10,334 nucleotides of DNA from the IMG/VR virus record IMGVR_UViG_2681813261_000016; one strand, 5' to 3'. Below the pieces are notes generated by a model. It had not been told where the DNA came from. It saw only the letters and a list, made by a program, of their open reading frames with translations, and ran no database searches. Positions 9,247 through 10,076 of this stretch are shown here, in pieces. Made by a program: the position numbers and the translations under genes. How positions within the stretch are numbered: position 1 is the stretch's first letter; every line of letters begins with the position of its first letter. The DNA is from a virus (lineage: Duplodnaviria; Heunggongvirae; Uroviricota; Caudoviricetes).

Positions 9247-9702
9247 ATGAAGAAAGGTTTACTTGCAGTTGCTCTGGCGGCTATTTGCACAATGGGTCTT
9301 ACTGGCTGTGATCGCGTGGAGCCTGGATACGTTGGCATCAAAGTAAACAAATTAGGTGAAGACAAAGGGATTGGTGAAGTGGTTGGCGTTGGTCGCCAAT
9401 GGACAGGTCTTAACACCGAACTTTACGTATTCCCGACCTTCAAACAAATGAAGACCTACGACGAGCCGTTCACATTCCAGATGAGTGACGGTACTGCTAT
9501 TGGTCACAAAATTGGCGTTGCGTATCTGGTTAATCGTGACAAGGTAACGACGGTGTTCCAGACCTATCGCAAAGGCGTAGACGATATCACCGAATCAGAT
9601 CTGCGTCAGAAAATTGCCGACTCTCTAAACCGTTTGGCCAGCCGTATGACCACTGACTCATTTATCGACGGTGGTAAGGCACAATTGCTGGACACGCACT
9701 GA
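9247..9702 (+). CDS. SPFH/band-7 (stomatin/HflC-like) lipoprotein, N-terminal portion, ending at a frameshift
   Basis: Lipoprotein signal peptide with lipobox LTGC (MKKGLLAVALAAICTMGLTGC); following sequence (VEPGYVGIKVNKLGE ... VTTVFQTYRKG) resembles the first half of an SPFH domain. RBS AGGAG at 9233-9237. Terminates at TGA 9700-9702 mid-domain. Confidence 0.6.
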   Translation: MKKGLLAVALAAICTMGLTGCDRVEPGYVGIKVNKLGEDKGIGEVVGVGRQWTGLNTELYVFPTFKQMKTYDEPFTFQMSDGTAIGHKIGVAYLVNRDKVTTVFQTYRKGVDDITESDLRQKIADSLNRLASRMTTDSFIDGGKAQLLDTH

Positions 9703-9719
9703 AAGATATTCAGAAAGAG

Positions 9720-10076
9720 ATGTCTCCGGTTGGTATTGAGGTACTGAGCCTGTCATGGGTTGGAAAGCCTGATTACCCAAAAACCGTCATTGAATCTATT
9801 AACGCCAAAGTAACGGCTAACCAGCGTACTCTGCAACGTCAGCAGGAAGTCGAACAACGTAAAGCTGAGGCGAATATGCTACGTGAACAGGCTAATGGTG
9901 AAGCTGATGCTATCCGTGCTCGTGCGCAAGCAGAAGCAGACGCCATTCGTCTGCGCGGTGAAGCTCTGCGTCAAAACCCGAACGTTATGGAGCTGGAAGC
10001 CATCAATAAATGGAATGGCCAGTTACCGCAGTACATGACTCAAGGGGCTAACACTCCTTTCATTACAGTGAAATAA
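9720..10076 (+). CDS. SPFH/band-7 domain, C-terminal portion (continuation of 9247-9702 in the -1 frame)
   Basis: Sequence VGIEVLSLSWVGKPDYPKTVIESINAKVTANQR followed by an Ala/Glu/Arg-rich helix (EADAIRARAQAEADAIRLRGEAL) matches the second half of SPFH domains. The frame is open from 9678, upstream of the annotated ATG. It has its own possible start (ATG 9720 after AAAGAG). Confidence 0.55.
   Translation: MSPVGIEVLSLSWVGKPDYPKTVIESINAKVTANQRTLQRQQEVEQRKAEANMLREQANGEADAIRARAQAEADAIRLRGEALRQNPNVMELEAINKWNGQLPQYMTQGANTPFITVK

Follow-up and report, generated by a model that had tools for sequence, protein, structure and literature searches.

A gene for an SPFH/band-7 lipoprotein occupies two reading frames in the 10,334-nucleotide (nt) stretch of DNA analyzed here (the window), and it raises the question of whether the split arises from programmed recoding, from two separately translated genes, from a faulty sequence, or from the decay of a single gene. 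As seen in the open reading frame (ORF) listing and in a reading of the window from 9100 to 10334, the first ORF runs from ATG 9247 to a premature stop, TGA 9700-9702. In the −1 frame, a stop at TAA 9675-9677 precedes an open stretch that extends from 9678 to TAA 10074-10076 and reads GTIAGHALKDIQKEMSPVGIEV...; its first ATG lies at 9720 and gives the 118-amino-acid (aa) ORF that is called mechanically. The features of the gene are as follows, the first two having been read directly from the sequence.

9232 to 9237, plus strand: Shine-Dalgarno sequence AAGGAG, 9 nt 5′ of the true start at 9247.
9247 to 9309, plus strand: lipoprotein signal peptide that has the lipobox L-T-G-C at its end, where codon 9307-9309 encodes the acylated Cys21.
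9247 to 9702, plus strand: 5′ part of the interrupted SPFH/Band_7 gene; its 151 aa correspond to Pfam positions 2-117 of 176.
9678 to 10076, plus strand: 3′ fragment in the −1 frame, covering Pfam Band_7 positions 118-176 plus a helical tail.
9693 to 9694, plus strand: junction of a 1-nt deletion, with GGAC/ACGCAC in the window against GGACAACGCAC (Leu-Asp-Asn-Ala-Leu-Lys) in intact relatives.

To establish the relationship between the two fragments, both were compared with the Band_7 profile (PF01145), whose gathering score is 23.6 bits. Residues 23-146 of the first ORF aligned with profile positions 2-117 of 176 (E value of 3.4e-14, 53.7 bits) and the −1 frame product with positions 118-176 (E value of 4.6e-10, 40.3 bits), each fragment scoring above the threshold. 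No single polypeptide of the window copy carries PF01145 in full, the domain being split at profile position 117/118, whereas the orthologues have it complete. With neither gap nor overlap between them in the profile, the two pieces represent one gene interrupted by a frameshift and not a chance arrangement. The tail of the 3′ fragment is helical, is rich in Ala, Glu, Arg, and Gln, and gave a weak Flotillin-like match in Pfam. At the other end of the gene, the N-terminus, MKKGLLAVALAAICTMGLTGC, consists of MKKGLLAVALAAICTMGLTG followed by Cys, residue 21, within the lipobox LTGC; the segment MKK-GLLAVALAAICTMG-LTGC combines a positive N-terminus, a hydrophobic core, and the motif [LVI][ASTVI][GAS]C, as expected of a putative lipoprotein. 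The preliminary description of this locus had named a split SPFH/band-7 lipoprotein gene with a lipoprotein signal peptide on its first ORF, had given the coordinates and lengths of both ORFs, and had estimated a fusion product of ~276 aa. All of this agrees with the sequence, the ORF listing, the Pfam halves that meet across the two frames, and the intact orthologues, which measure 831 nt, or 276 aa.

The same description had proposed a comparison with orthologues, and this comparison settled most of the alternatives, as the gene is continuous in the relatives. Four related phage records (Cyrano, PhiR41_1, and two of CMS-2020a) each carry one extra A and a continuous coding sequence; two annotated phage records name the gene “Stomatin-like integral membrane protein” or “putative lipoprotein.” Matches to the gene were found in 179 PLSDB plasmids and in 380 complete Escherichia coli genome records, and all of the best 60 matches from each set are 831 nt long and correspond to a single “SPFH domain-containing protein.” Alignment across the junction at 9693/9694 placed GGAC-ACGCACTG of the window against GGACAACGCACTG of the relatives, with a single A gone (CAAC to CAC). 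In codons, the relatives read CTG GAC AAC GCA CTG AAA (L-D-N-A-L-K) and the window reads CTGGAC-ACGCACTGAAA, such that the string of the deleted allele is GGACACGCAC where the intact one is GGACAACGCAC; the 32-mer CAATTGCTGGACACGCACTGAAAGATATTCAG marks the deletion allele. The lesion falls on an A dinucleotide in a context devoid of any longer repeat and is located inside the 22-nt overlap of the two frames (9678-9699) that the preliminary description had singled out. Loss of one base shifts the remainder of the gene into the −1 frame, as is seen here. Because the orthologues are continuous with one extra A, the split is due to a 1-nt deletion, real or apparent, rather than to a conserved recoding or a natural two-gene arrangement.

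The frequency of the two alleles was then estimated in several collections. With a 60-nt junction probe, all 166 plasmids of complete E. coli genomes and all 141 PLSDB plasmids matched at 98.4%, a value that equals 60/61 positions with one gap and denotes the intact allele, a 100% match being the mark of the deletion allele; no 100% match was obtained in PLSDB or in the complete E. coli genomes. In exact-pattern scans, the intact junction was present in 25 IMG/VR contigs and 15 JGI metagenome contigs, and the deleted junction in none of either collection. Among the GTDB species representatives, exact-pattern scans yielded neither the deleted nor the intact junction, and since the intact control was also at zero, that collection is uninformative for this element. 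At the protein level, the product belongs to a 90%-identity cluster of 848 members; the representative and most of the members among those listed, which come from Escherichia, Salmonella, Enterobacter, and Klebsiella, are 276 aa long. Thus, the deletion is absent from every related element compared, except for one metagenome-derived contig (L009).

What kind of element carries the gene was examined next. An exact match of the 151-aa product traced the window to a draft assembly of Shigella sonnei (GCA_001248175.1), in which it is contig CXEK01000145.1. The window is 98-99% identical over 10.1 kb to nonmobilizable E. coli plasmids of ~105-113 kb and about 95-98% identical to the phages Cyrano and PhiR41_1 over the matched region; the record of phage Cyrano and that of plasmid pLF82 (NC_011917.1) are equal in length. 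Judged by its sequence, the window is a piece of an SSU5-supergroup phage-plasmid of ~110 kb, as it shows the near-identity and synteny with nonmobilizable plasmids and phages of ~100-115 kb by which we recognized this supergroup, the name of which was taken from the literature. Elements of this kind in E. coli and Shigella are assigned to the SSU5 supergroup of phage-plasmids (PMC7969092; bioRxiv 10.1101/2025.09.12.675607), and for S. sonnei, one survey reported such elements in 18% of the genomes (bioRxiv 10.1101/2025.09.12.675607). Among the papers listed for SSU5, phage-plasmids, and SPFH, none used the term SPFH.

Along the window, and in the same order as in the relatives, the genes are dnaE, a hypothetical gene, a gene for a single-stranded DNA-binding protein of the T4 gp32 family, a 5′-3′ exonuclease gene, a small ORF, a RecA-like gene with a LAGLIDADG intein, a gene for a 66-aa protein, and the SPFH gene. 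The surroundings of the last two genes contain the following features.

8955 to 8975, plus strand: terminator-like hairpin AAGGCGTCC-ACA-GGACGCCTT with a T run, which ends the RecA-like/intein gene and forms the 5′ edge of the cassette.
8985 to 9013, plus strand: candidate sigma-70-like promoter (TTGAAA, 17-nt spacer, TATTAT) that fits 10 of 12 positions, a consensus match only.
9043 to 9243, plus strand: gene for a small hydrophobic membrane protein of 66 aa, matching PHROG 1130 (“membrane protein,” moron category) with an E value of 7.9e-26.
10095 to 10118, plus strand: intrinsic-terminator-like hairpin GGCGTCC-AGTT-GGACGCC followed by GTTTTATT, which closes the cassette.

Between the end of the 66-aa gene and the SPFH start codon lie 3 nt; the same gene precedes the SPFH gene in all relatives examined, and the two genes are probably cotranscribed. 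The hairpins at 8955-8975 and 10095-10112 have a common stem, GGCGTCC/GGACGCC, and bracket the two genes, giving the cassette a moron-like layout. Matches to the sigma-70-like pattern are no more numerous than in shuffled sequence, and the 66-aa protein had no match in Pfam or NCBIfam.

Taking these data together, we reasoned that the split gene is a rare, nonprogrammed loss-of-function allele, that is, a pseudogene, and on the sequence comparisons we give this reading a probability of about 0.8. A single gene coding for a 276-aa SPFH/band-7 lipoprotein, placed in a cassette with the 66-aa membrane protein on an SSU5-supergroup phage-plasmid, would have lost one A of the dinucleotide in ...CTG GAC AAC GCA CTG... 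at 9693/9694. Translation from the normal start would then proceed to ...LLDTH and terminate at TGA 9700-9702, and its product would be a 151-aa lipoprotein stub. Such a stub would keep the signal peptide, the lipobox, and about two-thirds of the SPFH domain and would be deprived of the last third of the domain and of the entire C-terminal helical region. In HflK/C and similar characterized SPFH proteins, the helical region builds an oligomeric ring or cage. Having no cage-forming helical region, the stub would presumably be nonfunctional, and we infer that the function of the gene was lost through the deletion. According to the +2 rule of E. coli, Asp at position +2 predicts retention at the inner membrane; with Asp next to Cys21, the stub is predicted to be kept there. 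The downstream 118-aa ORF would represent the out-of-frame remainder of the gene, and its product, if made, would have no signal peptide and would reside in the wrong compartment.

The competing explanation that fares best is a sequencing or assembly error, by which the isolate would have an intact gene with CAAC at this site and the draft alone would lack the A. The source is indeed a fragmented draft genome, the contig being only 10,334 bp long, and none of the finished plasmid and phage records examined has the deletion allele. Furthermore, the sole complete instance of the 151-aa product is one contig from one isolate; the exact product is recorded from NCBI and also from a Logan assembly, which speaks against an error only to the extent that the latter does not derive from the same reads, as it possibly does. 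On the other hand, a dinucleotide, unlike a homopolymer run, is an atypical context for an indel error. Compared with its two nearest full-length relatives, the window shows 98.6-98.8% identity, with 120-140 substitutions over the ~10.1 kb shared. Only three to four single-base indels occur in that length, and all but the deletion at 9693/9694 are situated in intergenic runs or terminators. Since this is the sole coding indel in ~10 kb, the assembly is not generally indel-prone.

The strongest data against an error come from an independent sample, DRR827171. Its contig L009 (Logan DRR827171_60289) spans the junction and carries the same single-A deletion, at ~375-396 of that contig, with the stop codon and the following ATG separated by 18 nt as in the window. 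The two sequences differ by three substitutions within the gene (at 9785, 9851, and 9992 of the window) and are unlike after 10080; at 9785 and 9992, the intact relatives are themselves polymorphic. The deletion allele is hence present in at least two nonidentical elements, and the finding of the same deletion in a nonidentical contig favors a real mutation over a sequencing error. We consider it quite probable from these comparisons that the A is missing from the DNA itself rather than from the reads alone, and an error appears unlikely. No mention of DRR827171, CXEK01000145, or GCA_001248175 was found in the literature.

The second carrier also bears on how often the gene has been inactivated. 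The loss could be recurrent or selected, either because the site is a mutational hotspot or because the lipoprotein is costly or counterselected in some hosts, and the fact that the window and L009 share the deletion yet differ at 9785, 9851, and 9992 and after 10080 is in line with this idea. However, no more than two carriers of the deletion were found, compared with hundreds of intact copies, and the sequence context offers no repeat beyond the dinucleotide. Moreover, the nearest site at which the two sequences differ is 92 nt from the deletion, and with elements as mosaic as these, one origin and subsequent recombination account for the data equally well. Recurrent inactivation is rated as an unlikely reading, and less likely still is a site at which low-level frameshifting keeps some full-length protein.

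Could the two halves be translated separately and cooperate as a split SPFH protein, the second being made from ATG 9720? That codon lies 18 nt after the stop and is preceded by a purine-rich sequence, so that some reinitiation is conceivable, and both pieces have been annotated by gene callers. Nevertheless, ATG 9720 is an ordinary internal Met codon of the intact orthologues, and the SPFH domain itself is interrupted, at profile position 117/118. The two products would also be sent to different compartments, as the C-terminal piece is without a signal peptide and the N-terminal piece would be exported and lipid anchored. The preliminary description had credited the second ORF with a purine-rich ribosome-binding site; the purine-rich motif is there (AAAGAG), but it abuts the start codon at 0-nt spacing, a poor arrangement in comparison with AAGGAG at 9 nt from the true start, 9247. 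A spacing that short between the Shine-Dalgarno sequence and the ATG is very inefficient in E. coli. Finally, the other contigs that encode the 118-aa product, L009 excepted, merely begin at that codon. All considered, a split protein is very improbable, and the 118-aa ORF is better taken as the remainder of the pseudogene.

Contigs L010-L017 were evaluated as independent support for a separate 118-aa gene and were rejected, for they start at or within 2 nt of ATG 9720. Having been retrieved only by a look-up of the exact product, they say nothing about the junction, which L009 alone spans. The middle of the gene is also where numerous public contigs start or stop, whole-plasmid contigs of ~107-110 kb among them, and eight start within 2 nt of ATG 9720. 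We judged these contig ends to be a selection effect of an exact-product look-up over many assemblies and not a matter of biology.

Lastly, programmed −1 ribosomal frameshifting or transcriptional slippage could restore the full-length 276-aa protein. The two frames do have a 22-nt overlap and join perfectly in the domain profile, and the RNA of 9690-9790 folds slightly better than shuffled sequence (z = −1.8). In this respect the locus resembles genes known for programmed −1 frameshifting, such as E. coli dnaX, the tail-assembly chaperones G/GT, and IS transposases, in which overlapping 0 and −1 ORFs encode one domain. Unlike in those genes, neither an X-XXY-YYZ heptamer nor a homopolymer run of A or T was found upon reading the overlap (9678-9699, ggcacaattgctggacacgcac), just as the preliminary description had stated, and the downstream fold does not stand out as a stimulatory structure: 11 of 200 shuffles folded as well or better, which makes the z value unremarkable, and the orthologues are nearly identical in sequence. 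With no slippery site and with a split arrangement that is not conserved, the orthologues having a single ORF save for L009 with its identical deletion, the doubt expressed earlier about programmed frameshifting is borne out, and this reading is the least credible of all.

Among known proteins, the nearest SPFH lipoproteins include WP_000715581.1 (276 aa; plasmids pYLMB30c and p1_20409) and CYRAN_57 of Cyrano, both from SSU5-supergroup phage-plasmids of E. coli and Shigella. The window gene is more than 99% identical to them in nucleotide sequence over the whole gene and shares with them the 66-aa gene upstream and the placement after the RecA-like/intein gene; it differs in the one missing A, which leaves a 151-aa stub and an out-of-frame remainder. 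When the intact orthologue WP_000715581.1, rather than the window copy, was scanned, its residues 1-275 aligned with PHROG 200 (“lipoprotein”) at an E value of 3e-108. More distant homologues reside in the prophages phiP27 (“putative serine protease”/“lipoprotein”) and P88 (“putative SPFH domain protein”), with ~76% nucleotide identity over ~740-770 nt. The P88 match falls under a single annotated gene, whereas the phiP27 match spans a gene and an adjacent hypothetical protein, and the backbones of both, which are integrated lambdoid and P2-like prophages, differ from that of the window. The two fragments of the window were deposited as CSS55167.1 (9247-9702) and CSS55191.1 (9720-10076) under the name “putative serine protease,” which the phiP27 homologue also bears. 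Domain searches of the window fragments revealed Band_7/SPFH only and no protease domain, so the name looks like a propagated misannotation.

In its architecture, a Band_7/SPFH domain followed by a helical Ala/Glu/Arg-rich region, the phage-plasmid gene resembles HflK/HflC, QmcA, YqiK, and the flotillins. Its similarity to HflK/HflC is weak, with E values of 2e-7 for HflC (TIGR01932) and 0.007 for the HflK chain 7vhq_E, and the scores fell far below the NCBIfam equivalog cutoffs for both HflC (30.2 versus 134.4 bits) and HflK (18.7 versus 159.4 bits). The mode of anchoring differs as well, as the phage-plasmid protein has a lipoprotein signal peptide, in contrast to the N-terminal transmembrane helix of HflK/HflC. 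Neither a partner protease gene nor an NfeD gene was identified near the SPFH gene, the neighbor being that of the 66-aa membrane protein, and PADLOC models produced no hit at an E value of ≤0.01 for the intact SPFH orthologue or the 66-aa protein.

A pseudogene made by a single-base deletion in a well-represented accessory gene is ordinary and already known in kind, and one more of them in a Shigella mobile element matters little. Annotators should combine the two ORFs into a single SPFH-lipoprotein pseudogene and mark it as frameshifted. As a natural null allele, it could also provide a comparison strain for studies of the widely conserved cassette of the 66-aa protein and the SPFH lipoprotein in SSU5-type phage-plasmids.

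Several observations were made elsewhere in the window. The RecA-like recombinase gene (6611-8950, 779 aa) is interrupted by an intein that contains a LAGLIDADG homing-endonuclease domain, Pfam detecting Intein_splicing, LAGLIDADG_3, and RecA_N in this region; the RefSeq name “LAGLIDADG family homing endonuclease” for the whole 779-aa protein hides the RecA host protein. For the 5′-3′ exonuclease (5347-6342), the mechanical ORF starts at GTG 5347 and is 331 aa long, and the enzyme of the relatives is annotated as 314 aa, with a start ~17 codons further in. Against the close relative L006, the window has just two other indels, both of them one-base length differences in intergenic homopolymers: A8 versus A7 upstream of dnaE (~83-90), and the terminator T run that follows the RecA-like gene (~8974). 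A mosaic breakpoint follows the SPFH terminator (~10080-10334). Past this breakpoint, L005 and L009 have a DUF7238 gene, immediately downstream in L009, and in L006 and L003 a DUF1281 gene comes first, followed by a hypothetical gene; the window has no DUF1281 gene there and goes straight to a homologue, of ~89% identity, of the gene that follows it, until the contig ends at 10334.
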